From Patescibacteria group bacterium (lineage in GTDB: Bacteria; Patescibacteriota; Microgenomatia; UBA1400; Chisholmbacteraceae), in the NCBI GenBank assembly GCA_022564195.1, contig JADFLW010000005.1:6808-70807 (forward strand): a stretch of 64,000 bases of DNA, given 5' to 3'. Each line of letters opens with the position of its first letter. Position 1 is the stretch's first letter. This document shows, in pieces, positions 633 to 19,979 of this stretch. The notes under the pieces are model-generated. The model was not told the DNA's origin. It worked only from the letters and a program-made list of their open reading frames with translations, and made no database searches. Made by a program: the position numbers and the translations under genes.

Positions 633-2900
633 CTATACTTCACATTTGCTGTAGCCACATTGTTGACAAGTCGAGCAGCCCTCGGCAAAATACATGGCGC
701 CCCCACATTCAGGACAAATGACGTCCTGAGTTTCCTCCGTAGGGTTGCCTTCTCTGGCTCGCAACGCCAATGGAACAACCGAAAGCTTGCTCTGAATTTT
801 TACTTCACGCTTTTCAGCTGCTACGGTATTGAGAATCTGTACTGCCTTGCTTTTATCCCGATAGATCGTGATCCCCTTACACCCTGTATCCCGAGCAAGC
901 ATATACGCGCGCTCCACATCCTCGATGGTTGCAGACTCAGGGAAATTAATGGTCTTGGACACCGCGTTGTCCGTGTATTTTTGAAACGCCGCTTGCATCC
1001 GCACATGCCAATCCGGCGGAATATCATGGGCTGTGCGGAAGACCTCTTTGATCCACGAAGGCACACCCTCAACATGGTCAACGCTTCCGGTCTTGGAAAC
1101 CTCATGCAGTACAGCATCAATCTGAGTCCGCTCCCCATCACCAAAAGCCTCATCAAGCGCTTGTTCAAATAAAGTATTCGTATATGTTAGTCCATGCTGA
1201 TCTACCACATTTTTCACATACGCCAAAGCGAAGACAGGCTCGATACCCGAGCTGCAATCGGCAAGCATACTGATCGTCCCTGTCGGAGCAATGGTGGTGA
1301 TCGCAATATTCCGCACCCGTGCCGACTTTCTCCCGCGCCTGCCAAGCACAGGATGACGACGGGCAAAACCACTTTGCTTCCACAACGGAAATCCCCCCTT
1401 TTCTCGCGCCAGCTTCGCACTCTCATCCCAGCCAACCTCTTGAATGAACTTCATCACCCTCGAAGCCAACCGCACCGCTCGCTCGCTATCGTAGCGAATG
1501 CGAAGCTTAAGCAACATATCTGCCCACCCCATCACTCCCAAGCCAATCCTCCGCACCCGATGTGCCATATTCTTAACCTGCGGGATAGGATATTCACTCG
1601 CATCAATTCCATCATCCAAAAATCGCACCGCTAGCCTCATCACCCGCTCAAGCTCCTCCCAATCAACACGCGGTTTCACTTGACCATTGCCGCCTGAAGT
1701 AACGAACCTCGATAAATTCAAAGAGCCCAAATTGCAAACATCAAACGGGTGAAGCGGTTGCTCACCACACACATTGGTCGCCTCAATCGGCCCCAGTGCC
1801 GCCAAAAGTGGGTTGTTGCGATTAATAGCATCCAAATAGATCATCCCTGGATCCCCGGTCTTCCATGCCAAGGCGACGGCCTGATCAAAGATCGTCCGGG
1901 CTCCAATAGTCTGCACCACATCTCCAGTCCGAGGGTTAATTAAATTCCATTCCCGATCGCCCTCCACCGCCTTCATGAACGCATCAGAAGCCCCCAGCGA
2001 AATGTTGAAATTAGCGACCTCCCCTTCTTGCGTTTTACAAGCAATGAATTCAAAAATATCCGGGTGGTCGGCATTGAGGATCCCCATGTTCGCACCACGG
2101 TGCCGACCACCAAGCATCACAATCTCTGTTGCCGCATCAAACGCCTTCATAAACGACACCGGTCCTGATGCAAATCCTCCACCACCAACAATATCGCCCT
2201 TCGGTCGCAAACGCGAAAAGTTGTATCCTGTCCCTCCACCCGATTGGTGAATGAGCGCCGTCCATTTGACCGCATCAAAAATCGCACCCATATCATCCTC
2301 AACTGGCAAAACGAAGCAATTCGCCAAAAGACCTCGTTTCCGCCCGGCACCGCGGAAATAGCAACCGGCCGGAACAAACGAAAAGGTGCCAATCATTTCC
2401 GCAAACCGCCCCTCCCAACCCTTTTTCTTCCGTTTCTCCGAAGATGCCACTGTCCGCGCCACCCGCTCAACCGCTTGCCGGGGCGTCTCAATCACATTCC
2501 CCTGTTCGTCTTTGAGAAGGTAGCGCCGCGCCATGGCTTTCAACGCATTCATCGGCATCCCTAAATCATCCTCAACCCCAATGACCTGCCGCGCTGCTCG
2601 AAGATCTGCCCGCTCTTTCCGATAGAGGATGTAGGCCTTGGCAGTCTGGTAGTACGAAGCGGCCATCAGCACTTGCTCAACGATATCCTGCACCTGCTCA
2701 ACAGTCGGTGTCACCTCACCGTTAGCTTTCTCCAAAATTGACATCACAATATCGGCAAGCCGCTTGGCTTCCTTCATCCCAAACTCACCGGTCGCTTTCC
2801 CAGCCTTGGAAATTACAGTGGTAATGTTCCCAGCATCGAGATCAACAATGCGCCCATCCCGTTTTTTTATTTTTTTGATCACAGAAGTCTTATTTCTCAT
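633..2900 (-). CDS. nrdJ: class II (adenosylcobalamin-dependent) ribonucleotide reductase, paralog 1, with N-terminal ATP cone
   Basis: N-terminal ATP-cone (KRDGRIVDLDAGNITTVISKA). RNR catalytic core (LANCFVL, NVCGEQPL, FDVCNLGSLNL). C-terminal Zn ribbon CPECGG...CSTCQQCGYSKC. Confidence 0.9.
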   Translation of the reverse strand: MRNKTSVIKKIKKRDGRIVDLDAGNITTVISKAGKATGEFGMKEAKRLADIVMSILEKANGEVTPTVEQVQDIVEQVLMAASYYQTAKAYILYRKERADLRAARQVIGVEDDLGMPMNALKAMARRYLLKDEQGNVIETPRQAVERVARTVASSEKRKKKGWEGRFAEMIGTFSFVPAGCYFRGAGRKRGLLANCFVLPVEDDMGAIFDAVKWTALIHQSGGGTGYNFSRLRPKGDIVGGGGFASGPVSFMKAFDAATEIVMLGGRHRGANMGILNADHPDIFEFIACKTQEGEVANFNISLGASDAFMKAVEGDREWNLINPRTGDVVQTIGARTIFDQAVALAWKTGDPGMIYLDAINRNNPLLAALGPIEATNVCGEQPLHPFDVCNLGSLNLSRFVTSGGNGQVKPRVDWEELERVMRLAVRFLDDGIDASEYPIPQVKNMAHRVRRIGLGVMGWADMLLKLRIRYDSERAVRLASRVMKFIQEVGWDESAKLAREKGGFPLWKQSGFARRHPVLGRRGRKSARVRNIAITTIAPTGTISMLADCSSGIEPVFALAYVKNVVDQHGLTYTNTLFEQALDEAFGDGERTQIDAVLHEVSKTGSVDHVEGVPSWIKEVFRTAHDIPPDWHVRMQAAFQKYTDNAVSKTINFPESATIEDVERAYMLARDTGCKGITIYRDKSKAVQILNTVAAEKREVKIQSKLSVVPLALRAREGNPTEETQDVICPECGGAMYFAEGCSTCQQCGYSKCEV

Positions 2901-2923: not shown

Positions 2924-3349
2924 CTACCGGTCTTCCTCGCCTCCGGCGAGCGGGTGTCCTCCTCGGTGTTTTGCCTTAATCCGATAGTACGCTCGATCCC
3001 TCTCTTCCAGTGTTTTTTCTTTTGAAAACAGGTGTTCAGGCCACTTCTCTTTGTTCTTAGCAAGTTTTTTCTCGAAAGCCTTAGAGACGTCGATGTTCAT
3101 GCTATCCGCAACCACTAACACCCACCATATAACATCAGCAAGCTCATCGCAAACGGGACCATAGAGTCGTGCTTCGCGCTTCACTTCTGCTCCCGTTTTC
3201 CACTGAAAGTGCTCAAGAAGCTCCGCTGCCTCCAACACCAAAGAAAGCGCCGCATCCTTAGGATTTTCCATGCCCGTCCAGCCTCGCTTCTTCCGAAACT
3301 CCAACACTTTTTGTTTGAGCTCTGAAATTGTTGTCTCCTGATCATTCAT
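2924..3349 (-). CDS. mazG: MazG-like nucleoside triphosphate pyrophosphohydrolase
   Basis: MazG/NTP-PPase motifs EEAAELLEHFQW and DELADVIWWVLVVADSMNIDV. Start chosen at MNDQETT, which has a perfect AGGAGG 7 nt upstream; the ORF extends to 3370. Confidence 0.8.
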   Translation of the reverse strand: MNDQETTISELKQKVLEFRKKRGWTGMENPKDAALSLVLEAAELLEHFQWKTGAEVKREARLYGPVCDELADVIWWVLVVADSMNIDVSKAFEKKLAKNKEKWPEHLFSKEKTLEERDRAYYRIKAKHRGGHPLAGGEEDR

Positions 3350-3384
3350 GAACATACCTCCTAACAACATTAACCGACCTCAGC

Positions 3385-3825
3385 TCAACCAGTGCTTTTA
3401 TAATCCTCAATTATCCTGTTATGATCCGCCGCGAGTCTTGGCAATTTGTCAAAGGAAAACCACTTTGCATCCAAGGCATCATCGCTCGCTCTTAACGCTT
3501 CTTCTGAAACCAAAACCTCGTAAACAATCGTCACCCGCTGAAAGGTGTCCCGCTTCGGGTCAGAATATATTCCCACAAACCGACCAAGCTTTCCAGTGAG
3601 TCCCGTCTCTTCCTCAAGCTCTCGCAGCACCGCCTCACGATCATCTTCATCCCAATCAAGCAAACCGCCAGGCAATGCCCAAAATCCTTTCTGCGGCTCA
3701 TTCCCGCGTTTAATCAACACCACTTTCCCATCACGCACAGCCACCGCATCAACGGCAATATTTCGCAAATATCTATGCCCACAATGCGGACACTTCTCCC
3801 CTCGCGTAAGAATCACTTTGCCCAT
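3385..3825 (-). CDS. NUDIX hydrolase with N-terminal zinc ribbon
   Basis: Nudix box GGLLDWDEDDREAVLRELEEETGL. N-terminal CPHCGH... Confidence 0.85.
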   Translation of the reverse strand: MGKVILTRGEKCPHCGHRYLRNIAVDAVAVRDGKVVLIKRGNEPQKGFWALPGGLLDWDEDDREAVLRELEEETGLTGKLGRFVGIYSDPKRDTFQRVTIVYEVLVSEEALRASDDALDAKWFSFDKLPRLAADHNRIIEDYKSTG

Positions 3826-3932
3826 GGACGATTAAACCGAACAATGACTGTAGCCGCATTCCGTACAAGCCCGCCTGCCAAAGCAAATTGACAAGCAAGT
3901 ACGCGACACAAAACTAAACTTTCGTTCAGACA

Positions 3933-6239
3933 TCACACAGCACAATAAGAGTATGCGCATTGCGGGCAGGTCGCGCATCCTTCCGCGAAGGTCATCGCAC
4001 TTCCACATTCAGGACAGACTCCTTCGAGCGCAGCAATCTTCTTCGTCTCCATTCTCTTGGATGCCGGGTGTTTTTCAGCGACGGTACTTAACACTTGATC
4101 CACCTTGCTCCCATCCCGATAAATCGTGATCCCTTTACATCCCAATCGCCATGCTAATAGATACGCGTCCTTCACATCCTTGCGCTTAGCGCTATGTTTA
4201 AAATTAATGGTCTTCGACACCGAATTATCACAATACTTCTGCCATGCAGCCTGAATTTTGACATGCCACGGCCAATCAACCTCATGGGTTGTCACAAACA
4301 CTTCAGCCATCTTCTTCGGTACACCTTTCAAACCACTGAGGCTCCCCTGCTTCTTAAGATGCGAAAGAATCCCTCGTTTCGTGAGCCCTTGAATTTCTCC
4401 ATTCTTAAGCTTAACATCCAAAACCTCCTCAAACACCGGATCCACGATTGTCATCGTCTTCGTCGCCCGATTCCTGCGATCATCCTCAAAGAACGTCCTC
4501 CGGGCAGTGACCAATGAGAATACTGGTTCAATACCTGCACTGCAGTTGGCAAAAAGGCTGATGGTGCCAGTCGGCGCGATCGTCAGCATCGTCGCATTCC
4601 GGTAGCGCTCTGCCGTACCCGCCCAGTAGCTGATATCAAAATTGGGAAAAACGCCACGCGCTTTTGCAAGCTCCATGGAAGCCGCTTCCGCTTCTCTTTT
4701 GATAAACTTTCCCAAGTGATCTGCCATCGCGACCGCTTCGCGGCTGCCATATGGAATGCCAAGCTTAAAAAGAAGATGGGCAAATCCCATCACCCCCAAA
4801 CCGATCTTGCGATTACCATGGCGCACCACCCGCTCAATTTCAGGAAGAATATAGGTATTCACCTCAATCATGTTATCCAAAAACCGAATCGCCGTGCGTA
4901 CCGTCTCCCCAAGATCATCCCAATCCACTTCCCAGCCAAATAGCCCGTGCGCATCGCGGCCTCGCTTGCCATTCTTCCGTTTGACATGCCTAGACAACAC
5001 GATGCTTGAAAGGTTACAACTCTCGTACGGCAAAAGCGGCTGCTCCCCGCATGGATTGGTGGCATCAAGCTTCCCTAGAGTGGGCGTGGGATTGTCCTGC
5101 TCCACGCGGTCCAAAAATATCATGCCCGGATCCCCGGTCTTGTGCGCCGCGGAAACAATCTCATCAAAAAGCCGACGGGCCTTCACAGTTACCGTGGTCT
5201 CACCGGTGCGCGGGTTCACCAAACGCCAGTCTTTGCCCTTCTCAACCGCTTCCATAAACGCATCCACCGCGCCCACCGAAATGTTGAAGTTCTTGATGTT
5301 CCCATCCTCTTCCTTCACCCGAATAAAATCATAAACATCAGGATGATCGGCATTAAGAATCGCCATGTTCCCACCCCGTCGCTTGGCACCCTGCAAGATC
5401 TTCGACAGAGCCGCCGAATACGCCTGTAAAAAGTCCACCGGTCCACTCGCCGCACCCGGAACGTTCTTCACCTTATCTCTGCACGGCCGGATCTTCGAAA
5501 AATTAAACCCAGTTCCACCGTTGTTTTTGTGAATGAGTGCCGCTTCCCCCAACGTTTTAAAAATGGAAGCAATGCTATCCTCAATCCCTAACACGAAACA
5601 GGCAGAAAGTTGCCCAGTCCCCCCATCATTGCCAGCCTCAAACATCGCCTTTCCGGAACAAACGAATTTCAATTTCACCATCCGCTCAAAAAATTCTCGC
5701 GCCATCCGCTCCACCTCTCCTTCGCTCTCCCAGCCAATCTCGGATTTTGCCATGTGCCGCGCCACCCGCCAAAGAAGCGCGCCCGGTGTCTCAATCACCC
5801 GACCTTGCATGTCGGTACGAAGATAACGCTTTTTGGCGACTTCCAACGAGTGCCCGGCCATCTCCGGCTCACGGATCTTCCACTCCGCTTCATCCGCTGC
5901 CTTTCTCGTGCTGTAGAGAATATAATACTTGGCCGTTGCGAAGTAGCCTGCTTGAGCTATAGCCGGCTCAACAATATTGCGGACTTCATCCACCGTGACC
6001 ATCCGGCGCCGACTAAAACCGTTCTGCAGTTTCGCCATCAGACCCTTGATAACTTTTGCCGCCTCTCGCTTCCCAAACTCTCCCGTGTCAGCTCCGGCGG
6101 CAATAACGCTGCGCTCGATCTTTGCCAGATCAAACGGCTCCTCCCGCCCATCCCGCTTTTTCACACCAAGAGAGCGCCTAGTCAGTTGCTCTCTTATGTC
6201 TTCAATTTGTTTTTTACCAAGAGCCAGGATTCCTTGCAT
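3933..6239 (-). CDS. nrdJ: class II ribonucleotide reductase, paralog 2, with ATP cone
   Basis: ATP cone (KKRDGREEPFDLAKIERSV). Core motifs LSACFVLGIED, NPCGEQPLLPYESCNLSS. C-terminal Zn ribbon CPECGSAMTFAEGCATCPQCAYSYC. Confidence 0.9.
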   Translation of the reverse strand: MQGILALGKKQIEDIREQLTRRSLGVKKRDGREEPFDLAKIERSVIAAGADTGEFGKREAAKVIKGLMAKLQNGFSRRRMVTVDEVRNIVEPAIAQAGYFATAKYYILYSTRKAADEAEWKIREPEMAGHSLEVAKKRYLRTDMQGRVIETPGALLWRVARHMAKSEIGWESEGEVERMAREFFERMVKLKFVCSGKAMFEAGNDGGTGQLSACFVLGIEDSIASIFKTLGEAALIHKNNGGTGFNFSKIRPCRDKVKNVPGAASGPVDFLQAYSAALSKILQGAKRRGGNMAILNADHPDVYDFIRVKEEDGNIKNFNISVGAVDAFMEAVEKGKDWRLVNPRTGETTVTVKARRLFDEIVSAAHKTGDPGMIFLDRVEQDNPTPTLGKLDATNPCGEQPLLPYESCNLSSIVLSRHVKRKNGKRGRDAHGLFGWEVDWDDLGETVRTAIRFLDNMIEVNTYILPEIERVVRHGNRKIGLGVMGFAHLLFKLGIPYGSREAVAMADHLGKFIKREAEAASMELAKARGVFPNFDISYWAGTAERYRNATMLTIAPTGTISLFANCSAGIEPVFSLVTARRTFFEDDRRNRATKTMTIVDPVFEEVLDVKLKNGEIQGLTKRGILSHLKKQGSLSGLKGVPKKMAEVFVTTHEVDWPWHVKIQAAWQKYCDNSVSKTINFKHSAKRKDVKDAYLLAWRLGCKGITIYRDGSKVDQVLSTVAEKHPASKRMETKKIAALEGVCPECGSAMTFAEGCATCPQCAYSYCAV

Positions 6240-6268
6240 ATAAGAGGCGTCCTATAATCACTACACTA

Positions 6269-8254
6269 TCAGGCTACATTGCAATAGCTGTAGGAGCAAT
6301 TCGGGCAGGTTGCACATCCATCCTGAAACACCATCGGCGTTCTGCAGTCCGGACAAATTCCCTCATCTCCGTTCACCACAACATAGCGATGTTCATGGAG
6401 TTCTTGCCGCACCTCACCGTTCACTTCTCCGTCGACAAGCTCGACTACTTCCGATGAGCCTCCAGAAGAAACCTTCCCAAGATTCAACACCTGCTGCGAA
6501 CGGCTTTTATCACGATAGATGGTAATGCCCATACAACCCGTGTCATAAGCCATAAGGTAGGCACGCCGGACATCCTCAACCGTTGCCGTCTCTGGCAAAT
6601 TAATGGTCTTGGAAACCGCGCTATCAAAGTATCGCTGCCATGCTGCCTGCATCTTGACATGCCACTTCCAACGAATATCATGGCTTGTTGCAAAAATTCG
6701 CTGAAGATCATCCGGTACTCCGTCGATATCCTGACAGCTTCCGGTCTGTGCAACCTCACTCAATATCCGTTCTCTACGCTTTCGACTCCTCACCCGGTTG
6801 GCAAGCTGTCGTTTAAACTCAGCGTTGAACTCGGTTAATTCGGTTTTACCGATATCCAAAATATTGCGTCTCGTGAAGCTCAATGCAAAAATCGGCTCGA
6901 TTCCAGAAGAGCAGGAAGCTAAAATACTGATAGTCCCGGTTGGCGCTATGGTCGTAACGGTGCTGTTGCGCATCGCAGGATATTTTTTCTCCCATCGACT
7001 ACCTTCAAAGGCAGAAAACGATCCGCGGGCGCGTCCCATTGCAACCGACGCATCCCGTGCCACGCGGTCTACGAACCGAGCGATCTTCCGCCCAATTGCC
7101 ACCCCTTCTGTTGAGTTGTAGGCAATACCAAGGCGAAACAGCAAATCGGCAAACCCCATCAGCCCCAAACCGATCTTGCGTGTTCTCTTCGACATCTCAT
7201 CAATTTCTGCCAAAGGATATTCACAAACATCAATGACATTATCCAAAAACCGAACCGCCAGCCTCGTTACTTCCTCCAATTTCTTCCAATCAACAAGCAT
7301 TTCAATATCTCTTTTCTCTTTACCCCTATGCTCTTTAGTCTTATTCTCTTTAGTCCTTTGAATAACAAATTTCGCCAAATTAATGGAACCTAAGTTGCAG
7401 CTTTGATAGGGCAGAAGTGGTTGCTCGCCACACGGATTGGTCGCCTCAATCTCTCCCAGGTGGCGGATAGGACAGGCTGCATTCATCCGGTCCAAGAAAA
7501 CCAGACCAGGATCCGCCACCTCCCACGCATATTCACAAATTTGTTCAAAGATCTCCCGTGCCCCAACCCGTCGGACGGTCTTGCCAGTGTGAGGCGCAAC
7601 CAAAGCGTAGGTCCCATCACGACGCAAGGCTTCCATAAAACTATCGGTGATGCCAACGGAAACGTTGAAGTTCCGGAGTCGTGTGCCACTGGCTTTCGCA
7701 ACGATGAACTCACGAATATCCGGATGGTCAACACGCAAGATCCCCATCATCGCCACCCTCCGACTCGACCCCTCGTTAATCACTTGAGCCATATGATCAA
7801 AAAGATCCATGTATGAAACAGGGCCTGAGGCAATCCCGCCCGTGCTCGACACCAAACTTCCCCGAGGCCGAAGACGAGAAAACGCGAAGCCGACACCCCC
7901 CCCTGTCCGCAATACAAGCGCTGCATCATGAAGAGTCTTGAAGATGCTCTCCAAGCCATCATCGATAGGAAGAACAAAACATGCCGAAAGCTGATTCACC
8001 CCATTACGACCCGCATGCATGAGTGTCGGGGAGTTGGGCAAAAATTCAAAACGTATCATCATCCGATAAAAGGCTCTGGCGTCAACCACCACATCCTCAC
8101 CATAGCTTCCACTCGCAGCCGCTATCGCATTGGCAACCCTGCGAAACATCTGCTCAGGAGTTTCAGTGACATTCCCTTTATCATCGCGCTTCAAATAATC
8201 GCGCATCTGAAGGACAGTTTTTGCGTTTTCCGATAGGCCTCTCATTACCAACAT
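6269..8254 (-). CDS. nrdJ: class II ribonucleotide reductase, paralog 3, lacking the ATP cone
   Basis: Core motifs LSACFVLPIDD, NPCGEQPLLPYQSCNLGSINL. C-terminal Zn ribbon CPDCRTPMVFQDGCATCPNCSYSYC. No N-terminal ATP-cone. Confidence 0.85.
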   Translation of the reverse strand: MLVMRGLSENAKTVLQMRDYLKRDDKGNVTETPEQMFRRVANAIAAASGSYGEDVVVDARAFYRMMIRFEFLPNSPTLMHAGRNGVNQLSACFVLPIDDGLESIFKTLHDAALVLRTGGGVGFAFSRLRPRGSLVSSTGGIASGPVSYMDLFDHMAQVINEGSSRRVAMMGILRVDHPDIREFIVAKASGTRLRNFNVSVGITDSFMEALRRDGTYALVAPHTGKTVRRVGAREIFEQICEYAWEVADPGLVFLDRMNAACPIRHLGEIEATNPCGEQPLLPYQSCNLGSINLAKFVIQRTKENKTKEHRGKEKRDIEMLVDWKKLEEVTRLAVRFLDNVIDVCEYPLAEIDEMSKRTRKIGLGLMGFADLLFRLGIAYNSTEGVAIGRKIARFVDRVARDASVAMGRARGSFSAFEGSRWEKKYPAMRNSTVTTIAPTGTISILASCSSGIEPIFALSFTRRNILDIGKTELTEFNAEFKRQLANRVRSRKRRERILSEVAQTGSCQDIDGVPDDLQRIFATSHDIRWKWHVKMQAAWQRYFDSAVSKTINLPETATVEDVRRAYLMAYDTGCMGITIYRDKSRSQQVLNLGKVSSGGSSEVVELVDGEVNGEVRQELHEHRYVVVNGDEGICPDCRTPMVFQDGCATCPNCSYSYCNVA

Positions 8255-8284
8255 CCTCCGAGTTTACCAAGCGAAGCCGCCTTG

Positions 8285-8740
8285 CTATGTGGACTGCTCC
8301 AGCTGTTTAATCTCCCGTTTGAAATCGTCAATATCTTGAAAATCCCGATACACGCTCGCAAACAGCAAATAGCCAACGGGGTCCAACTTGCGTAAACGGG
8401 TGATCACCAACTTCCCAACCTCCCAACTTTTTATTTCTTTATTCTTCCTGCGCCTAATCTTCCGCTCAACATCCTCAATGAGTTTCTCAATCTGCTCGAT
8501 GGATACTGGCCGTTTCCAAGTAGCCTTCATGAGTCCCTTTTTAATTTTCTCTCGATCAAATGGCTCGCGAGTTCCATCTTTCTTAAGAACGACAAGATCA
8601 ATGCCCTCAATCCGCTCGTACGTTGTGAACCGTTTCTCGCACACGTTGCATTCGCGTCGCCGCCTGATGCTTTCTTCATCCTCAGTCAGTCTGCTCTCCA
8701 AAACGCTGCTATCACGCTGCCCGCAATACGGACATTTCAT
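8285..8740 (-). CDS. nrdR: transcriptional repressor NrdR
   Basis: N-terminal Zn ribbon MKCPYCG...CNVCEKRF followed by an ATP-cone. 151 aa. Sits immediately upstream of RNR paralog 3. Confidence 0.9.
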   Translation of the reverse strand: MKCPYCGQRDSSVLESRLTEDEESIRRRRECNVCEKRFTTYERIEGIDLVVLKKDGTREPFDREKIKKGLMKATWKRPVSIEQIEKLIEDVERKIRRRKNKEIKSWEVGKLVITRLRKLDPVGYLLFASVYRDFQDIDDFKREIKQLEQST

Positions 8741-9210: not shown

Positions 9211-10524
9211 TTAATCAAACGTAACTTCGCAATGTTTGCAAATATCACAAGGCCCAACCATCGTATTCTCAGCGCGACAAACACGACAGGTGCCCGAATG
9301 ATAGGTCCATGACTTCTCACTGCTTCCAAACGATACTCCATCTAATGCAAGAACGGTAAACCCGTCCAAGGAAAACCCAATCGACGCAATCATTCCCGGC
9401 GGGCAACCACCACCCCCGACTCTCTGCGTTTCAAGATCTCCATAGCGATTAAGGAGATGTGCTTGTAGTCGTCCCGCTTCTATTACAACTGAATCCGCCG
9501 CGACACCCCCTTCGAAGCCCCTTAAGTGAAAACTCCTATTAACGTCCCGCCTCCATCGACAATCTTCCGTCAACTGATGAGCAGTGAGAATCTGCCCGCA
9601 CTCCGCAAAGACTTTGACAGCCCGCCGTGCAAAACTGTACGCCAGCTCTAATTCCGAGAGGCCCTTCTGATCCAAGCCCATTGAATGGGTACGCAGTTCC
9701 TCTCGTAAAGCTTCTGCTAAAAATGCAGCCGATTCCCGTAGCTGCGGCTCATAGGATGCAAAAGTTTCGGGAGCGAGACTCGAACCGAAACCAACACCAG
9801 AAACAACAAATCGATCATCGCTGTTGGCAATTTCATCAATCCGCGCAACAACATCATCAGCCGTTTGCATTATTGGGTTGTCCGAAATATCAATAGGACT
9901 TGAAACAAAAAACTCTGGAGTACTCTGCGAATCAGGAGGAGCGGCAACCCACTCAGCGAAACCAGACAGTTGAGCATGACCCTCAAGCGACAGCGCATTC
10001 TTATAAAACATCACACGGACTCGCCTACCTGCTCCTGGATCTCCTTCGACTCGATACACATACGTCAAGCTCACGCCGGTATAACCATCCTCTGCCGGTC
10101 CTGGAGGATAACTAAGAACGAATGTCGAACCATCGGGACAATCAAGGCATCTGCGTCGAAGCTCCCGCATGCCAACAAGCTCTGCGAGTTCTCGCTCGTA
10201 CGGCTTGCCAGCCGCCCTTCTCTTCTTTACTCCATTCAATGTAATGCGAGTGATGTCACCGAACGCTCGATGGTCAGCGGTAGTTAAAATCAGCCGTTCG
10301 TTTTCTCCTTCGCTAAACTCAAACTCAAAACTGCCTCGCCGCAGAACATCTTCTCCAACGGCGGTGGAAAAGTTAGCATAAAGACGTCGCTCAATGCTCT
10401 CTGTTACTCCACCAACGCGCAGGGCGGCATCAAACTCATCACGAAAATCAAAATGGGGATTAGTTACTTCAAGAACATTCATCCCCTCATGAAGATAAAC
10501 ACCTCTGCGTTCTGCTGCAGCCAT
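9211..10524 (-). CDS. hypothetical cytoplasmic protein with C-terminal Cys-rich zinc-ribbon
   Basis: 437 aa with no recognisable domain. C-terminus is CRVCRAENTMVGPCDICKHCEV. Start has GGAGA SD. Preceded by copy A of the duplicated element. Confidence 0.6.
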   Translation of the reverse strand: MAAAERRGVYLHEGMNVLEVTNPHFDFRDEFDAALRVGGVTESIERRLYANFSTAVGEDVLRRGSFEFEFSEGENERLILTTADHRAFGDITRITLNGVKKRRAAGKPYERELAELVGMRELRRRCLDCPDGSTFVLSYPPGPAEDGYTGVSLTYVYRVEGDPGAGRRVRVMFYKNALSLEGHAQLSGFAEWVAAPPDSQSTPEFFVSSPIDISDNPIMQTADDVVARIDEIANSDDRFVVSGVGFGSSLAPETFASYEPQLRESAAFLAEALREELRTHSMGLDQKGLSELELAYSFARRAVKVFAECGQILTAHQLTEDCRWRRDVNRSFHLRGFEGGVAADSVVIEAGRLQAHLLNRYGDLETQRVGGGGCPPGMIASIGFSLDGFTVLALDGVSFGSSEKSWTYHSGTCRVCRAENTMVGPCDICKHCEVTFD

Positions 10525-10556
10525 AAAAAATCTCCTGTACCCGACAGGAGGAATAC

Positions 10557-10580
10557 AAAGAAAACCTTCCCGAAGGAAGG
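10557..10580 (-). terminator. intrinsic terminator-like hairpin at the gene-proximal end of copy A
   Basis: The minus strand reads GGCCTTCCTTCGGGAAGG followed by TTTTCTTTG. The 3' arm of the hairpin contains GGAAGG. Confidence 0.5.
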
Positions 10581-10593
10581 CCTAATCTTAAAC

Positions 10594-10624
10594 TAGACGC
10601 TTAACGCTAGGCGCTAGACGCTAA
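10594..10624 (-). repeat. heptad tandem array TAGACGC-TTAACGC-TAGGCGC-TAGACGC-TAA, array 1 of copy A
   Basis: Four tandem 7-nt units TWRRCGC read on the plus strand. Duplicated at 10689-10719 and in copy B. Confidence 0.7.
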
Positions 10625-10688
10625 TTTATGCTCCTGCTCGGAAGAAAAGTTCCTCAAGCAACGTTCCTGACTCCTTAGTTCCTAACCC

Positions 10689-10719
10689 TAGACGCTTAAC
10701 GCTAGGCGCTAGACGCTAA
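10689..10719 (-). repeat. heptad tandem array, array 2 of copy A
   Basis: The same 31-nt sequence as 10594-10624. Confidence 0.7.
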
Positions 10720-10747
10720 ATTACAGTTGCGGCACAGCCCCAGGTTC

Positions 10748-10779
10748 CTCGCCTTCGCCGGAGCTCCGGCGAAGGCGAG
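10748..10779. repeat. perfect 32-bp palindrome CTCGCCTTCGCCGGAGCTCCGGCGAAGGCGAG
   Basis: The sequence equals its own reverse complement, with 16-bp arms. It lies about 25 nt 3' of the membrane-protein stop codon. It is flanked by a GGTTCC direct repeat. The equivalent segment in copy B is degenerate. Confidence 0.7.
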
Positions 10780-10803
10780 CCACTGGGTTCCGCTGCTACG
10801 AGG

Positions 10804-11391
10804 TCAAATAGTTATCAAACGTACAATGTCTAGTTTTCGTATCGATTGCCGGTTTAAAAAAGTGCGCCATATCTTGCTTCTAACAAACATCCGCAAAAAC
10901 TCCACCACGACAAACCCTGCCGGAACAAACAACAACGTGCTTGCCATCTGCATCCTAAGAAACGGCAACCCGTTGATGTATGACAGCAAAAGTCCCGAAA
11001 AATCTCGAGAATACATTCCCCAACCGTCAAGCAGCCACACCCCAAAGTTCGTCCACGAATAGAAGAACAGCGTTGCGCCCACACCCACGCCCGTCGCCAA
11101 AACCACGCGTTTCGCGCCGCCTGGGTTCCTCCGTCTCCCAAACACACCACTTGCGACCACTGCCGGAATCAGGAATCCGCTCCAGGTGAACAAGAAGATG
11201 TTCGTATTACCAAGAATCGTGTCAGAAAGCACCATCACCAAGAACACCAACCATAACGCCCACCGTCGCCCCAAATAAAAACTTGTTAAAAGCATCACCA
11301 TGGTTACCAACTCCACATTAGGTCCCAAATCAAAAACAACCCGTTCCAAAAAGGCCAACAAAACCAAAGTGATAAAGAAAAGTATTCGCAT
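10804..11391 (-). CDS. polytopic membrane protein, possibly an ECF-transporter S-component-like substrate-capture protein
   Basis: About 195 aa with 5-6 predicted TM helices (MRILFFITLVLLAFL..., LFTWSGFLIPAVVASGVF, ASTLLFVPAGFVVVEFL). Start chosen to give a 4-nt gap after the upstream stop. The ORF is open to 11481. Confidence 0.5.
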   Translation of the reverse strand: MRILFFITLVLLAFLERVVFDLGPNVELVTMVMLLTSFYLGRRWALWLVFLVMVLSDTILGNTNIFLFTWSGFLIPAVVASGVFGRRRNPGGAKRVVLATGVGVGATLFFYSWTNFGVWLLDGWGMYSRDFSGLLLSYINGLPFLRMQMASTLLFVPAGFVVVEFLRMFVRSKIWRTFLNRQSIRKLDIVRLITI

Positions 11392-11395
11392 TAAA

Positions 11396-11815
11396 TTATT
11401 TCGGCTCAATATATCTCCACTCAATGAGATCGCCATCGCGTACAACTTTCTTATCCGCCGCAACATCCCCTGACTCTCCATTCACAATGTAAATCCAGGC
11501 CCGCTCAGCCAAGCTCTCCTTTCCTCCAATTGCCTTCACAAAAATCCCAAAATCATACTGCTGCGAATCAATAGCAAGTCCTTCCTCACGAGCAACATGC
11601 TCCAACGCTCCATACACCGTACTTTCTGCAGGCACCCCAGAATAAGTAGAAATATTCCCGTCGCCAAAATCCAAAACCAGTGTTACACCTTGACGAACCT
11701 GTTCAACGGCAGCAGGAGGTGGAACCTCCATCCCAATCCCAGGCTGTCGACGCAACGCCCGCCACCCACCTCCGACAAGAACAAGAACAAAAAGAGCCAA
11801 AAGAAATTTTTTCAT
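11396..11815 (-). CDS. secreted DUF4430-like (transcobalamin-like beta-grasp) protein, putative cobalamin-binding
   Basis: Signal peptide MKKFLLALFVLVLVGGG. The C-terminal motif WIYIVNGE...WRY is typical of DUF4430. The family link is from memory, not a search. Confidence 0.5.
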   Translation of the reverse strand: MKKFLLALFVLVLVGGGWRALRRQPGIGMEVPPPAAVEQVRQGVTLVLDFGDGNISTYSGVPAESTVYGALEHVAREEGLAIDSQQYDFGIFVKAIGGKESLAERAWIYIVNGESGDVAADKKVVRDGDLIEWRYIEPK

Positions 11816-11816
11816 A

Positions 11817-11839
11817 ATAAAAACCTTCCCGAAGGAAGG
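11817..11839 (-). terminator. terminator-like hairpin of copy B, overlapping the ribosome-binding site of the DUF4430 gene
   Basis: The minus strand reads GGCCTTCCTTCGGGAAGG-TTTTATT-ATG. GGAAGG in the 3' arm sits 7 nt from the start codon. Confidence 0.5.
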
Positions 11840-12050
11840 CCTAATCTTAAACTAGACGCTTAACGCTAGGCGCTAGACGCTAATTTATGCTCCTGCTCGG
11901 AAGAAAAGTTCCTCAAGCAACGTTCCTGACTCCTTAGTTCCTAACCCTAGACGCTTAACGCTAGGCGTTAGACGCTAAATTACAGTTGCGGCACAGCACC
12001 GGATTCCTCACTCCACCGAAGCTCCGGCGAAGACGAGCCACCGGTTTCCG
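11817..12050 (-). repeat. copy B of the ~234-bp duplicated element
   Basis: See copy A. Its terminal hairpin and T-tract abut the ATG of the DUF4430 gene. Confidence 0.75.
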
Positions 12051-12157
12051 CTGCTTAAAGTCCACTTGTCAATGAAATCACGATAACAACACTATCAACA
12101 CGCTGTCAATAGACAGTTCCGTCCTTCGCTTCCTCTAGCTCTCTTCTTACGCTTGCT

Positions 12158-12865
12158 CTATTCCTCCTCTAGCTCTCCCTCAACCCCTTCCATCTCGGTC
12201 TCCTCTTGTCCATTTCCTGCCTCTAGAGCATCTTCAGAATCGCCCACTGCACCCTCATCTTCTTGAACCTGCTCCCCGACCACCTCCACAGCACGTTGGT
12301 ATCCACTCCTACTCTTTTCCAGAGACTCCTCCACGCTTGATTTTGCTTCATCAGGAACCCTGGCTAGAATACCAATGAGCACCTTCTCGTGTTTCCTGGA
12401 AGCACGCACGAATCGCTCATAAAACTCCTGGGTATCCTTACCAGCCTCGGTCGAGCGCTCCGCTTCCCCGACGGCTCGCTCAAGATAGATCTCCGCCTTC
12501 GTAACAGTCGATGAAGCCAAGCCAGCCTTGCCTTTCTCCGCCAGATCCAAAGCGGAAGCTATGCGCTTATCTCCAAAGTGAAGCATCAACTCAGCTCGAG
12601 CCAGGGCATCCCGCGTCAGCCAAAGCTGGATGCGATCACGAATCATCTTCAGAAAATACAACGGGTGATCAGGCAAAATTCCAGGGTACGGCAATGGATA
12701 CTCATCTGCCGCTTCTGCCAAGCGCTCTTCCACCACAACCTCCTGAGACTCCGCTTCGCTTTGAGCGGCAAGGGTAACAAGTGCAGGCCTTGAACGCCAA
12801 ATGGAAACGCCGGCCACAGAAACACCAAACAGGAAGACAAAAAGTACAAGCACGTTTCGCTTCAT
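12158..12865 (-). CDS. secreted or membrane-anchored DUF5667-like protein with an acidic C-terminus
   Basis: N-terminal anchor MKRNVLVLFVFLFGVSVAGV, an alpha-helical region and an acidic tail EETEMEGVEGELEEE. Resembles CPR-type DUF5667 proteins. Confidence 0.5.
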   Translation of the reverse strand: MKRNVLVLFVFLFGVSVAGVSIWRSRPALVTLAAQSEAESQEVVVEERLAEAADEYPLPYPGILPDHPLYFLKMIRDRIQLWLTRDALARAELMLHFGDKRIASALDLAEKGKAGLASSTVTKAEIYLERAVGEAERSTEAGKDTQEFYERFVRASRKHEKVLIGILARVPDEAKSSVEESLEKSRSGYQRAVEVVGEQVQEDEGAVGDSEDALEAGNGQEETEMEGVEGELEEE

Positions 12866-15835: not shown

Positions 15836-18241
15836 ATGGCAAAGAAACGCCGCACAAAATCAAAAAAGAAAACAGCCAAAAGCAGCCGCGCTCGACGCGA
15901 TCTTTCTCACTCTCGTCGTGACGCAAAAGGACGTTTCGCTTCAAAATCCAAAAGACAAAAAAACATCCTTCAATTACAGAGCTTCCTAAAAGAATACTGG
16001 TATGTGTTCGCGTCACTCGCCCTCATCGGCAGCGTAAGCTACGTCTTAATTTTCAACGATCTTCCTTCACCCCGCAAACTCCGACAGGACGACGCCTTCT
16101 CTGCCTCCACCAGAATCTTCGATCGCAATGGAAATCTTCTATTTGAAATTTTTGCCGAACGCAACCGCACTCCTGTCTCGTTGAACGAACTCCCGGACTA
16201 CGTGAGCCGTAGCCACATCGCAATTGAGGACAAAAATTTCTTCCAGCACCACGGGTTCGCCACAGAGGGATTGTTAAGAGCAACGTTCAACACGCTCTTT
16301 CGCAGGAAACTGCAAGGCGGGTCAACGATCACCCAACAACTGATAAAAACCGCCCTCCTGACACCGGAGCGCACAATTAGAAGAAAAATCCGCGAGGCAA
16401 TCCTAGCCCTTCTGACAGAACTCATCTACTCCAAAGACCAAATCCTGGAAATGTACTTAAATCACGTCCCGTATGGTGGGACGGCATGGGGAATAGAAGC
16501 CGCAGCCCAAACCTACTTCGAAAAACCTGCCAGCAAACTAACACTGGCTGAAGCGGCGATGCTTGCCGGCCTCCCAGCCGCACCAACGCGTTACTCCCCA
16601 TTTGGCGTCAACCCGGATCTGGCAAAACGACGACAGACACTCGTCCTCTCTCGAATGGTCGAAGACGGCTACATCAGCAAAGAGGAGGCAAGAAACGCCG
16701 AACAAGAAAAACTTCAATTCACAACCCCCACAGTTGACATCAAAGCCCCACACTTTGTGCTGTGGGTCAAAGAACTGCTTGTTGAAAAATACGGAGAACA
16801 TCTCGTCGAACGCGGGGGGCTGAAGGTCACGACAACCCTGGACCTTGAGCTCCAAGAGTACGCCCATGCATCAGTGGCTGCAGAAATTAAAGAGTTAGAA
16901 GGAATGAGAGTCGGGAATGGCGCGGCACTGATCACAAAGCCTAAAACGGGAGAGATCCTGGCAATGGTAGGATCGAAAGACTTCTTCGATTTTGAAATTG
17001 ACGGGCAAGTCAATGTCACCCTTCGCCCACGCCAACCGGGAAGCGCCATCAAACCAATAAACTATGCAACGGCGTTTGAGACCGGCCGCTTAACCCCCGC
17101 TTCTTTGCTTCTGGACATTCCAAGCTGCTTCTTCGTCCCTGGACAGCCATTGTACTGCCCGAGAAATTACGACTACGCCTTTCATGGTCCAGTGCAAGCC
17201 CGCTTCGCCCTAGGAAATTCATACAACATCCCAGCTGTCAAGGTTCTTGCAGTCAACTCCGTAGAAAGTATGATCGCTACAGCCAGCGCCATGGGAATCA
17301 CAGGCTGGAAGAATCCCGATCAATACGGACTCTCTTTAACGCTAGGGGGTGGGGAGGTTCGTATGACAGACATGGCAGTGGCATTTGGCGTGTTTGCAAA
17401 TCAGGGAGTGACAGTCCCGCTCCAACCGATATTAAAAGTGGAAGATCAGCAAAGAAACATTTTAGAGGAGTACAAACCGCACCAGATAGAGGAACGAGTT
17501 GCAAACCTGAATAAAGAAAATACGCTGACACAAAAAGAACAAGAAGACGAGACAGGGCCAAAAAGAGCGCTCTCCCGAGAAACTGCCTACCTCATCTCCC
17601 ATATACTATTAGATAACAATGCACGCACGGCAGCGTTCGGAGCATCGTCTCAGCTTGTGATTCCCGGAAAAGTCGTATCGGTAAAAACCGGAACCAGCAA
17701 TGATCTTCGAGACAACTGGACCATCGGTTTCACGCCCCATGTCTTAGTCTCAACTTGGGTGGGAAATAACGATAACACGCCAATGCACCCCTACCTCGTA
17801 TCCGGCATCACAGGTGCTGCACCAATCTGGCACGAACTCATGGAAAAAGCACTCGAGAACCAAGAACCCGAATGGCCAGAAAAACCAGATGGTATCATCG
17901 GCATGAATGTCTGCACGCTGACAGGTCTCCTTCCCAACCCAGAAAACCCGTGCACCACCAGACATGAATTTTTTATCAAAGGGCTTGCGCCCAAGGGAGT
18001 CGACCAAAGCCGCCGTGGAATCTGGATTAAAAAAGACACGAATCTGCCGCCCGAAGAAGGAGATTTTGAGAACCTAGAACTCAGGGAACATCTCGTAGTC
18101 TCCGACCCCTTCGTCAAAGACTTCTGCCTGGACTGTCCATGGCCACAAGAAATCGACGAAAACGGTCAGCCAACCGGAAAGATCCGCTACCCACAAATAA
18201 CAATCAATCCTGCCTCGACATCGATAGAGGGCGTATTTTAG
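15836..18241 (+). CDS. class A penicillin-binding protein (PBP1A-type transglycosylase/transpeptidase), paralog 1
   Basis: GT51 motifs IAIEDKNFFQHHGF and GGSTITQQLIK. Transpeptidase motifs QPGSAIKP (SxxK), SYN and KTGTS. N-terminal TM helix. Confidence 0.9.
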   Translation: MAKKRRTKSKKKTAKSSRARRDLSHSRRDAKGRFASKSKRQKNILQLQSFLKEYWYVFASLALIGSVSYVLIFNDLPSPRKLRQDDAFSASTRIFDRNGNLLFEIFAERNRTPVSLNELPDYVSRSHIAIEDKNFFQHHGFATEGLLRATFNTLFRRKLQGGSTITQQLIKTALLTPERTIRRKIREAILALLTELIYSKDQILEMYLNHVPYGGTAWGIEAAAQTYFEKPASKLTLAEAAMLAGLPAAPTRYSPFGVNPDLAKRRQTLVLSRMVEDGYISKEEARNAEQEKLQFTTPTVDIKAPHFVLWVKELLVEKYGEHLVERGGLKVTTTLDLELQEYAHASVAAEIKELEGMRVGNGAALITKPKTGEILAMVGSKDFFDFEIDGQVNVTLRPRQPGSAIKPINYATAFETGRLTPASLLLDIPSCFFVPGQPLYCPRNYDYAFHGPVQARFALGNSYNIPAVKVLAVNSVESMIATASAMGITGWKNPDQYGLSLTLGGGEVRMTDMAVAFGVFANQGVTVPLQPILKVEDQQRNILEEYKPHQIEERVANLNKENTLTQKEQEDETGPKRALSRETAYLISHILLDNNARTAAFGASSQLVIPGKVVSVKTGTSNDLRDNWTIGFTPHVLVSTWVGNNDNTPMHPYLVSGITGAAPIWHELMEKALENQEPEWPEKPDGIIGMNVCTLTGLLPNPENPCTTRHEFFIKGLAPKGVDQSRRGIWIKKDTNLPPEEGDFENLELREHLVVSDPFVKDFCLDCPWPQEIDENGQPTGKIRYPQITINPASTSIEGVF

Positions 18242-18598: not shown

Positions 18599-18704
18599 AT
18601 TGAAGCTCGCATCCTGCCTAGTGGGACGGATTCTTCTCATCGAGGTTTTCCGCAGCGGGAATGAGCAAACAGGACCGCTCAAGCCCTTCTGCTACAATAA
18701 CGTT

Positions 18705-19979
18705 ATGCCTGCCGAAAACCTGAAAGAGGCAATCGCTCCAGAATCTCCTCAAGAAACTCTTCCATTAGACAATCAGAAGAGCCTACGACAACGAGGGCCC
18801 TTCCTTGTCTTCCCACTGCTGATGACAATTGCAATCATTGCGGTGCTCTATACAAACACAATCTCCACAAACCTTGAATTCATCACTCCTCTGCCTGACG
18901 ATTCTCAAGTCCTCTCCGCTCAAACACCCAGCCCGTCCGAGCCGAAGGAAATCATAGGGTTCCTTCCATTCTGGAATATCAATGAAGAAGAACGTCAACG
19001 CTACCACCTCCTGACCCAAGTCGCCTTTTTCGCACTTGAAATTGATGCCGAAGGAAACATCAAGAAGATAAAGGACGATAACACCGAAGAACCGGGGTGG
19101 ACTACCTACAAAAGCCAAGCTTTCGGGACCATGTACCGCAAAGCCAAAGATTCAGGAGCAAAAGTCGTCTTGACGATTCAGGCATTGGGTCCCGAGGTGA
19201 TCACAAGCGTGTTGAACGATCCCCAAAAAAGGAAAAGAGCAATCCATCAAACACTCGAAATTATTGCGGTCAAAAACCTTGACGGCGTGAACGTCGACTT
19301 TGAGCTTAGCGGCTCACCAGCATACAGAACAAGAAAAAACTTCACGCAATTCATACAAGAGCTAAGAACAGCGCTCACAGCCCAAAACCCCCACCTCACA
19401 TTGAGTGTCGATGTATTTGCGGATGCGGCGGCGAAGGTGCGTTTATGGGAGATTCCGAAAATTGCCAAATTCGCAGATCACATCATCATCATGGCCTACG
19501 ACTTCCATCGCATGTCTTCACAAGTCGCAGGTCCCATCGCCCCAATCCGCGGTGCTCCGAAGCACTGGGAGTACGACATATCAAAGACCCTAACCGATTT
19601 CAGCAAATCCATGCCCTTAGAAAAAATTATTCTCGGCGTACCGTACTATGGCTACGAATGGCAAACCAGCTCAGAGGCAGCCTATGCATCCACGTATCCA
19701 AGATCAGGATCATTAGCAACATATAAACGCGTCCAATCACTCATTGCCCAAAAGCAGACCAAGCTCCACTGGGACGAAGTGGCTCTATCACCAAGGCTGA
19801 CGTACGTTGAAAATGGGAAGACCTACCAAATCTACTATGAAAACGAAACTTCTCTTGGCCTGAAATACGATTTAGTGAACGAAGCCGGTCTAGCTGGAAT
19901 AGCAATCTGGGCACTGGGATATGATGGCGAACATCCGAACCTTTGGAATCTCCTGTCTGAAAAGTTCCCAAAAAATTAA
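18705..19979 (+). CDS. membrane-anchored glycoside hydrolase family 18 (chitinase-like) protein
   Basis: GH18 catalytic motif LDGVNVDFE (DxxDxDxE) and IIMAYDFH. TM helix FLVFPLLMTIAIIAVLY. Start set at ATG MPAENLK. The upstream ORF-track start is a TTG. Confidence 0.75.
   Translation: MPAENLKEAIAPESPQETLPLDNQKSLRQRGPFLVFPLLMTIAIIAVLYTNTISTNLEFITPLPDDSQVLSAQTPSPSEPKEIIGFLPFWNINEEERQRYHLLTQVAFFALEIDAEGNIKKIKDDNTEEPGWTTYKSQAFGTMYRKAKDSGAKVVLTIQALGPEVITSVLNDPQKRKRAIHQTLEIIAVKNLDGVNVDFELSGSPAYRTRKNFTQFIQELRTALTAQNPHLTLSVDVFADAAAKVRLWEIPKIAKFADHIIIMAYDFHRMSSQVAGPIAPIRGAPKHWEYDISKTLTDFSKSMPLEKIILGVPYYGYEWQTSSEAAYASTYPRSGSLATYKRVQSLIAQKQTKLHWDEVALSPRLTYVENGKTYQIYYENETSLGLKYDLVNEAGLAGIAIWALGYDGEHPNLWNLLSEKFPKN

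Follow-up and report, generated by a model that had tools for sequence, protein, structure and literature searches.

Two S-component-type transporters of vitamin B12, ECF-CbrT (ECF, energy-coupling factor) and BtuM, are already known, as are transcobalamin-like proteins encoded beside CbiO/CbiQ-type transporters. In the present study, these systems are compared with a two-gene cassette found in a 64,000-nucleotide stretch of the genome of a Patescibacteria group bacterium of the Chisholmbacteraceae (assembly GCA_022564195.1, contig JADFLW010000005.1, positions 6,808 to 70,807; the whole stretch is hereafter called the window, and positions are counted from its first letter). The cassette encodes a secreted protein of the domain family DUF4430 and a membrane protein of the family DUF6580. 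We consider it likely that the two proteins form a B12-repressed pair for the capture and uptake of corrinoids that feeds NrdJ, the adenosylcobalamin-dependent (class II) ribonucleotide reductase (RNR), and the pair is best read as a distant analogue, lacking an ECF module, of the nrdJ-cbrS-cbrT-pduO system of Lactobacillus.

ECF-CbrT of Lactobacillus delbrueckii (6FNP) is encoded in an nrdJ-cbrS-cbrT-pduO cluster, the context that first pointed to CbrT, and it strictly needs the shared EcfAA'T module, since CbrT alone does not transport (PMC5997447). Like DUF6580, CbrT is a small six-helix membrane protein of the S-component type, its ligand being B12, and the genomic context is shared as well, with nrdJ and pduO there and NrdJ, PduO or CobA, DUF4430 and DUF6580 in the relatives of the locus studied here. 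CbrT belongs to PF12822 (E = 2e-11), whereas the window protein falls into PF20221 and misses the PF12822 cutoff; in addition, neither the window nor the 80 related loci described below showed an EcfAA'T module close to DUF6580, and the A-x-x-x-A motif in the first transmembrane helix (TM1) of CbrT is replaced by non-conserved hydrophobic residues at the aligned DUF6580 positions. BtuM of Thiobacillus denitrificans (6FFV, 8C7P, 8OVV; PMC6072759) gave the best TM-scores of solved structures to DUF6580, and both are small membrane proteins without an ATPase partner nearby. It has been demonstrated that the invariant Cys80 of BtuM ligates cobalt and removes cyanide (PMC6072759), whereas the DUF6580 protein of the window contains no Cys and no His and an alignment of 32 DUF6580 homologs has no conserved Cys column, which rules out a BtuM-type mechanism based on cysteine ligation of cobalt. 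Moreover, BtuM is found together with BtuB in Gram-negative bacteria and lacks a transcobalamin-like partner such as the DUF4430 protein that accompanies DUF6580. DUF6580 is thus set apart from BtuM by its lack of Cys and from the ECF S-components of Pfam by its sub-threshold PF12822 score.

For bacterial transcobalamin-like SLBB proteins whose genes neighbour CbiO/CbiQ-type transporters, a role in B12 scavenging has been predicted (Burroughs et al., 2007, PMC1796856). As in the window cassette, these operons place a secreted or tethered beta-grasp protein beside an S-component-type membrane protein, but ATPase and T components are encoded in them too, as a rule together with an alpha/alpha-toroid partner, whereas the cassette consists of the beta-like protein and DUF6580 only. 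Transcobalamin proteins have DUF4430 at the C terminus (PMC4350170). The beta domains of transcobalamin, intrinsic factor and haptocorrin share their fold and family (PF14478) with the DUF4430 protein of the window; the animal carriers are soluble and consist of an alpha and a beta domain with B12 sandwiched in the middle, whereas the beta domain of the window stands alone, is most likely tethered to the membrane and is paired with a membrane protein. In the type II ATP-binding cassette (ABC) importer BtuCDF, the extracytoplasmic binding protein BtuF delivers B12 to the translocator, and many bacteria place this system under cobalamin-riboswitch control. Its delivery logic resembles that of the window pair, whereas the folds are unrelated and the window pair has no co-encoded ATPase. 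BtuH of Bacteroides, for its part, is a DUF4465 protein and was not retained as a counterpart of the DUF4430 protein.

The cassette lies on the minus strand, which the first-pass annotation had not specified, with the DUF4430 gene at 11815..11396 and then the DUF6580 gene at 11391..10804, four nucleotides (nt) separating the DUF4430 stop codon from the ATG at 11391. Along this strand the order is promoter, riboswitch, DUF4430, DUF6580, second riboswitch, a gene for a 437-aa protein, NrdR and three NrdJ genes. The cassette and its predicted regulatory elements are as follows.

12080..12109, minus strand: sigma-70-like promoter, TTGACA-18-TATCGT preceded by TG (10/12 in a consensus scan; a pattern match only).
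11899..12073, minus strand: predicted cobalamin riboswitch aptamer, copy 1, in the 5' leader of the DUF4430-DUF6580 operon (Rfam RF00174).
11821..11842, minus strand: GC-rich expression-platform hairpin AGGCCTTCC-TTCG-GGAAGGTTT followed by a U-run, a terminator-like site.
11396..11815, minus strand: gene for the DUF4430 protein, 139 aa (Pfam PF14478, AlphaFold2 model, Foldseek).
10804..11391, minus strand: gene for the DUF6580 membrane protein, 195 aa, six transmembrane helices, S-component-like fold (Pfam PF20221, AlphaFold2 model, Foldseek, hhalign).
10639..10816, minus strand: predicted cobalamin riboswitch aptamer, copy 2, in the 5' leader of the gene for the 437-aa protein (RF00174 match at 10791..10663).
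10532..10583, minus strand: two expression-platform hairpins of copy 2, terminator-like sites.

The first-pass annotation, made from the sequence alone, had described a secreted 139-aa protein ending in a W-Y-VNGE...WRY motif and had associated it with DUF4430 and a transcobalamin-like beta-grasp domain, and both points were borne out. The open reading frame (ORF) is present, its product ends in ...AWIYIVNGESGDVAADKKVVRDGDLIEWRYIEPK, which carries the motif, and the protein matches PF14478 with E = 6.1e-12 and 46.3 bits (cutoff 23.8). It is built of a hydrophobic N-terminal segment (MKKFLLALFVLVLVGGGW) with a helix at residues 3-21 that serves as anchor or signal, a flexible linker, and a transcobalamin-beta-like beta-grasp domain at residues 44-139. 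In the AlphaFold2 model, whose core has a predicted local distance difference test (pLDDT) value >92, this domain comprises strands 44-49 and 55-61, a helix at 67-78, a hairpin at 82-87/90-96, and strands 106-111 and 130-136; the hairpin inserted behind the helix is the feature that defines the transcobalamin-like SLBB clade (PMC1796856). The 19 best Foldseek matches of the model were 3U7Z and the beta domains of transcobalamin, intrinsic factor (2PMV) and haptocorrin (4KKI), with E-values of 1e-6 to 1e-4. The transcobalamin beta domains 5NO0 and 5NP4, the latter being the isolated human beta domain with cyanocobalamin bound, gave TM-scores of 0.72-0.73 with a root-mean-square deviation (rmsd) of 2.6 Å, and across the animal carriers the superposition covered ~97 residues at 2.4-2.8 Å. 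The nearest solved bacterial DUF4430 structure is 3U7Z, a Ruminococcus protein, which was also matched, though not significantly, when solved structures were searched with the sequence of the DUF4430 protein. No NCBIfam model matched this protein, the DUF6580 protein or the 437-aa protein. The N-terminal hydrophobic helix, together with the lipobox LAGC of the Promicromonospora ortholog, indicates that the DUF4430 protein is most likely extracytoplasmic and tethered to the membrane.

The downstream partner had been described as a protein of roughly 195 aa with five or six transmembrane helices and the size of an ECF S-component, in agreement with the 195 aa, six helices and S-component-like fold obtained here. 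The longest ORF of the gene (11481..10804) would encode 225 aa and another start at 11436 would give 210 aa; the ATG at 11391 is favoured by the alignment of 32 homologs and by the gene call on an identical public contig. The anticipated Pfam assignment held for DUF4430 only, the partner being a member of DUF6580 (PF20221, E = 3.5e-24, 86.3 bits, gathering threshold 27) that reaches the threshold of no ECF S-component family of Pfam (PF12822, PF07155 and others); a Kerfeldbacteria homolog scored 20.1 bits against PF12822. Sequence searches returned 664 homologs at E<=1e-3, and all among the matches listed carry PF20221. The AlphaFold2 model (pLDDT 88, predicted TM-score 0.81) and the positive-inside rule give six transmembrane helices with both termini inside. 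All of the top 13 Protein Data Bank matches in Foldseek were S-components or BtuM (probability 0.69-1.0, TM-score 0.45-0.64), the folds matched being those of RibU, FolT, ThiT, CbiM, BioY, PanT and BtuM, and the best query-normalised TM-score, 0.58-0.59 at an rmsd of 4.2 Å, was obtained with B12-bound BtuM. By sequence, CbrT (6FNP_A) was the only solved structure matched, and not significantly (E = 3.6 with phmmer and 1.1 with hmmsearch); the L1 motif D-x-(G)-P-N-V-x-x-V-T is common to CbrT and the DUF6580 protein. The invariant polar residues of DUF6580 (E16, R17, D21, N25, E27, D57, N62, T69, W70, N115, W119, D122, W124, Y127, Y138 and N140) are placed by the predicted topology in or beside outward-facing loops. 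A cobalt transporter of the CbiMNQO type was ruled out, there being no CbiN, CbiQ or CbiO, no B12 synthesis genes and a transcobalamin-like partner.

The first-pass annotation had also pointed to a duplicated RNA-like element bracketing the cassette. The repeat is real and, judged by its conserved core, the element is a cobalamin riboswitch, which had gone unrecognised and which we regard as the strongest single support for a role in corrinoid metabolism. An Rfam scan of the window in gathering mode gave no match, and the riboswitch was seen only in E-value mode on 10450-12200, where copy 1 (12073..11899) matched the full model, 1-189, of RF00174 (Cobalamin, Rfam clan CL00101) with 28.9 bits and E = 5.1e-5, and copy 2 (10791..10663) matched with 22.8 bits and E = 0.0029. 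The conserved core has been retained in full (GGAA-N-GGUG, GCUGUGCCGCAACUGUAA and GGAGUCAGGAAC), core elements including the B12-box-like GCCGCAACUG and AGUCAGGA were found in the window leader, the core of copy 1 contains CTGTGCCGCAACTGT...AGTCAGGAA, and the copy 1 leader folds with z=-4.0 relative to shuffled sequences. The 3' 190 nt of the two copies (10561-10750 and 11820-12009) are 98% identical and the segments 10753-10797 and 12011-12055 are 87% identical, with compensatory changes between the copies in a P3-like stem (ACCGG/CCGGU vs CCCAG/CUGGG). Such near-identity of the 3' portion beside diverged 5' stems suggests gene conversion or a strong constraint on the expression platform. In the hairpin at 11821..11842, the 3' arm GGAAGG is the ribosome-binding site (RBS), located 8 nt before the ATG at 11815, and the hairpin may act both as terminator and as RBS sequestrator; likewise, the second hairpin of copy 2 (CTCCTGT-CGGGT-ACAGGAG plus a U-run) contains an AGGAG RBS 8 nt before the ATG at 10524.

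A 7-nt tandem repeat (CTAGACG when read on the plus strand, ~4.4 copies) also forms two arrays in each leader, one of them within the variable P6 part of the aptamer and the other in the expression platform (10593-10623, 10688-10718, 11852-11882 and 11942-11977). Furthermore, riboswitches below the Rfam gathering score despite a conserved core are frequent in this group, being observed in loci L002, L006, L052 and L054 as well as in the window, and such sub-threshold elements indicate that the B12 regulons of the Candidate Phyla Radiation (CPR) are probably under-annotated.

Conservation of the cassette was evaluated in a scan of one genome per species, which yielded 215 DUF6580 loci, of which 80 were kept for comparison. 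These came from Woese-, Gottesman-, Ames-, Chisholm- and Kerfeldbacteria, other CPR metagenome-assembled genomes, a DPANN archaeon (Iainarchaeum) and cultured Promicromonospora. DUF4430 was detected with Pfam and an iterated hidden Markov model (HMM); an HMM built from CPR sequences alone misses the actinobacterial orthologs. A DUF4430 gene lies immediately upstream of DUF6580 on the same strand in 70 of the 79 assessable loci, frequently with an overlap of 1-4 nt, and the pairing extends to the DPANN archaeon and to Promicromonospora, the DUF4430 protein of Promicromonospora soli being a lipoprotein (Pfam DUF4430, E = 9e-17). In three loci (L049, L060 and L064), DUF6580 occurs without DUF4430 and directly follows NrdJ.

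The riboswitch recurs together with the gene pair. Among the 27 loci covered by the Rfam scan at gathering score, cobalamin or AdoCbl-II riboswitches were found directly before DUF4430 in L003, L004, L008, L015, L019, L020, L023 and L034, and in L048 a riboswitch precedes an X-family gene (described below) that opens a longer operon; moreover, L004, L015 and L019 have a second gathering-score riboswitch right after DUF6580, so that the layout of the window recurs with divergent sequences. A core 15-mer derived from the Rfam-confirmed matches (CTGTRCCGCAACNGT, <=1 mismatch) was found in 889 kb at 37 sites on the cassette strand and at a single site on the opposite one. In 31 loci it stands before the operon, 22 times directly upstream of DUF4430 (counting L023, where an alpha-toroid gene separates DUF4430 from DUF6580) and nine times at a distance of 2.2-2.8 kb, and it lies just downstream of DUF6580 in six loci.

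The neighbouring genes are conserved as well. NrdJ lies <=6 kb from the cassette in 30 of the 80 loci, a corrinoid adenosyltransferase is present in 19, and the common gene order is NrdR-NrdJ-adenosyltransferase-(riboswitch)-...-DUF4430-DUF6580. The adenosyltransferase is of the PduO type in 18 loci (PF01923, E~1e-55) and of the CobA type in the archaeal locus L053 (PF02572, E = 8.6e-55), a non-orthologous replacement in the same place. ABC-ATPase-like ORFs occurred near the cassette in only 7/80 loci and without a consistent arrangement, and an ECF energising module was not found near DUF6580 in the window, nor consistently within 6 kb in the 80 loci. The interpretation of the cassette as a corrinoid-capture pair, which had been put forward in the first-pass annotation, is thus supported by the observed families, folds, gene order, riboswitch-like leaders and conserved NrdJ/adenosyltransferase context.

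Some further observations were made in these loci. In L023 (3803-6483), a riboswitch is followed by genes for a DUF4430 protein of 200 aa, an alpha/alpha-toroid protein (Prenyltrans-like, 444 aa, with a signal peptide) and DUF6580, a gene set resembling a transcobalamin whose beta and alpha parts are encoded separately, beside a membrane protein; no systematic search for alpha-toroid genes was made, and L023 is the only one of the 80 loci in which one was identified in the cassette. Group I introns lie near the cassette at L001:8337-8557, L004:4142-4328, L015:7705-7948 and L048:10928-11131, a LOOT RNA lies at L006:11250-11361, and the NrdJ of L064 (2274-5846) has an intein containing a LAGLIDADG endonuclease. 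Many of the loci (L008, L009, L013-L017 and others) come from records of metagenome-assembled genomes (TPA assemblies) labelled 'uncultured Gammaproteobacteria' but with CPR-type gene content and synteny, and these labels look unreliable.

In the window itself, a demand for the cofactor is indicated by three NrdJ genes and by the finding that none of the ~55 larger ORFs scanned in the 64 kb is a cobalamin-biosynthesis gene. Both features had been noted from the sequence alone, and the three reductases all exceed the curated cutoff of TIGR02504 (adenosylcobalamin-dependent RNR; 399.95 bits), the nearest gene beginning 2.55 kb from the DUF4430-DUF6580 pair, close to the 2.5 kb given earlier. No ECF A or T gene was found among the same ORFs, in which SufC is the sole ABC ATPase. 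The genes downstream of the cassette are the following.

9211..10524, minus strand: gene for the 437-aa protein, with a Cys-rich (zinc-ribbon-like) C-terminal tail and a riboswitch of its own (leader 10525-10816).
8285..8740, minus strand: gene for the repressor NrdR (Pfam Zn_ribbon_NrdR and ATP-cone).
6269..8254, minus strand: NrdJ paralog a, class II RNR and presumed consumer of the imported cofactor (TIGR02504, 684.6 bits).
3933..6239, minus strand: NrdJ paralog b (TIGR02504, 628.5 bits).
633..2900, minus strand: NrdJ paralog c (TIGR02504, 681.5 bits).

The three class II RNR paralogs, which with NrdR occupy 633-8740 on the minus strand, share a mutual identity of only ~42%, one of them lacks an ATP-cone, and NUDIX and MazG-like genes sit between paralogs b and c. 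Three RNRs are an unusual count for a small CPR genome.

For the pair as a whole, we infer the ligand, the hand-off, the translocation and the direction of regulation as follows. At low intracellular (adenosyl)cobalamin, the leader would permit transcription and translation of both genes, and the DUF4430 domain, attached to the outside of the membrane through a ~20-residue linker, would bind free corrinoid on its nucleotide side in the manner of the transcobalamin beta domain. It would then present the corrinoid to an outward-facing pocket of DUF6580, which would move it across the membrane by toppling of the S-component type. A corrinoid adenosyltransferase, encoded outside the window and adjacent to the cassette in relatives, would make adenosylcobalamin (AdoCbl) for the three NrdJ enzymes, and high AdoCbl would close the riboswitch and shut the operon. 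As regards energisation, we lean towards an operation independent of an ECF module, of the kind known for BtuM or solitary BioY, in which DUF4430 may here be a required partner. This solitary or DUF4430-dependent mode is favoured because no ECF gene is linked to the cassette, because DUF6580 is far from the PF12822 family, and because the aligned TM1 positions lack the A-x-x-x-A motif of CbrT. The use of a shared ECF module located at another place in the genome, as for CbrT, is in our judgement the less probable arrangement.

Several points weigh against a corrinoid uptake pair and have to be set beside this evidence. Tight binding of B12 by transcobalamin needs the alpha domain plus the beta domain, and the window has no transcobalamin alpha-like gene; an adenosyltransferase gene was likewise not found within the 64 kb. 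The match of the DUF6580 protein to PF12822 is sub-threshold (15.4 vs 30.7 bits, E = 0.019), its hhalign comparison with CbrT reached only 61% probability (E = 8e-5, 129 columns, 29% identity), and all of its Foldseek E-values are >=0.095 and individually not significant, so that the assignment of the S-component fold rests on the agreement among the matches. Both riboswitch copies of the window fall below the gathering score of RF00174 (31.5), and the Promicromonospora loci have no detected riboswitch. In addition, the L. sakei operon Lsa1836-1840, which combines ECF S, A and T components with transcobalamin alpha- and beta-like proteins, was reported for heme uptake (bioRxiv 10.1101/864751).

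This last report raises the question of whether the pair could transport or scavenge something else, for example heme, a different tetrapyrrole or a cobalt chelate, with only an indirect link to B12. The deposition of 3U7Z as a 'putative metal binding protein' and the possibility, raised by Burroughs et al. (PMC1796856), that certain archaeal SLBB proteins have a different metabolite as their ligand point in the same direction, but the cobalamin riboswitches that precede the cassette in 31 loci, the conserved neighbours, which are NrdJ and corrinoid adenosyltransferases and not heme or metal genes, and the fold matches of DUF4430, which are cobalamin carriers, make such a ligand improbable. 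A different objection concerns the membrane protein, which could be a receptor or anchor for DUF4430, forming a surface reservoir of B12, or a structural protein of the MreD kind, with uptake left to another system. One public homolog carries the annotation 'Rod s...', presumably rod shape-determining protein MreD, and MreD is among the weak Foldseek matches (9DVB_D, TM-score 0.33/0.45); the matches to S-components and BtuM are clearly better (TM-score 0.5-0.6, probability 0.95-1.0). Surface B12 reservoirs have been described in Bacteroides (BtuJ1) and an energising module is missing nearby, but DUF6580 follows NrdJ without DUF4430 in L049, L060 and L064 and is therefore not merely a holder for DUF4430, and neither the window nor the loci showed another B12 transporter. 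We therefore judge that DUF6580 is unlikely to be anything other than the translocator of the pair.

The leader, finally, might be a degenerate riboswitch remnant, for instance a repeat spread by recombination, with the pair expressed regardless of B12. The scores below the gathering threshold would fit such a remnant, as would the odd 7-nt arrays within the leader and the 98% identity of the 3' 190 nt, suggestive of a recent duplication or gene conversion. A decayed element would not be expected from the retention of all conserved core nucleotides, the compensatory stem changes between the copies, a fold far more stable than that of shuffled sequences (z=-4) and the recurrence of the two-riboswitch layout, with divergent sequences and at gathering score, in L004, L015 and L019, and we regard a non-functional leader as very unlikely. 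Regulated capture and uptake of corrinoids by the DUF4430-DUF6580 pair is therefore the reading that we retain.

The second riboswitch of the window belongs to the gene for the 437-aa protein, which has no Pfam match, five close clusters and 82 relatives in a profile search of 1.84 billion representatives. In L004, L007, L015, L016, L019, L026 and L057, the gene after DUF6580 is likewise preceded by a second riboswitch and encodes a member of another family, of ~300 aa, whose C terminus forms a zinc ribbon. Direct comparison of the two families by hhalign gave a probability of 58%, and bridging relatives of the 437-aa protein (P0209, P0165 and P0163) also match the ~300-aa family with E = 2e-23 to 6e-13; since the bridging sequences match both, the two appear to form one riboswitch-controlled superfamily. 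The 437-aa protein is probably a third member of the B12 regulon and may be a novel protein of B12 handling; when solved structures were searched with profiles of both families, only zinc ribbons were returned. In L044, a 437-like gene lies on the opposite strand with a riboswitch core of its own. Besides, there is a family of 700-836 aa without Pfam match, here called X. In nine loci, its gene follows NrdR-NrdJ-PduO and lies between the riboswitch and DUF4430-DUF6580; in a tenth, L034, it comes after DUF6580 (examples are L024:2933-5419, L025:2963-5473, L037:3284-5479 and L048:3137-5560, with six more loci). In profile comparisons, X showed a weak similarity to the N-terminal part of the ~300-aa family (probability 52%) and none to the 437-aa family. 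Altogether, at least two further uncharacterised protein families probably belong to this B12 regulon.

Elsewhere in the window, two class A penicillin-binding proteins (transglycosylase and transpeptidase) are encoded near each other on the plus strand, at 15836-18241 and 20053-22539, and they flank a GH18 chitinase-like gene at 18600-19979.

A broader hypothesis, which we consider doubtful and put forward tentatively, is that DUF6580 is a new family of ECF-module-free cobalamin transporters in which the tethered transcobalamin-beta-like protein would be obligatory and the membrane protein would replace the alpha domain, so that B12 would be sandwiched between the two. Such a system would be the main entry route of B12 in CPR bacteria, some DPANN archaea and some Actinomycetota, with the riboswitch-controlled 437-aa/~300-aa zinc-ribbon superfamily and the X family as hitherto unrecognised B12-handling proteins.

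CPR and DPANN organisms have tiny genomes with almost no cofactor synthesis, and many of them depend on a B12-requiring ribonucleotide reductase. To our knowledge, the route by which they acquire B12 has not been described, and our literature searches returned nothing on DUF6580, on Patescibacteria with cobalamin or riboswitches, or on Patescibacteria with energy-coupling factors. The new elements of the present study are DUF6580 as a membrane partner family, the minimal cassette with a beta domain only and no ECF module, its predicted riboswitch control, and its spread in CPR, DPANN and some Actinomycetota. The cassette provides a concrete two-gene candidate for B12 uptake in CPR and DPANN organisms, gives a testable role to DUF6580, until now a Pfam domain of unknown function, and represents a candidate S-component-type protein that would use an external binding protein. 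Moreover, the cultured host Promicromonospora carries the pair, which opens this predicted route of B12 acquisition to genetic testing.

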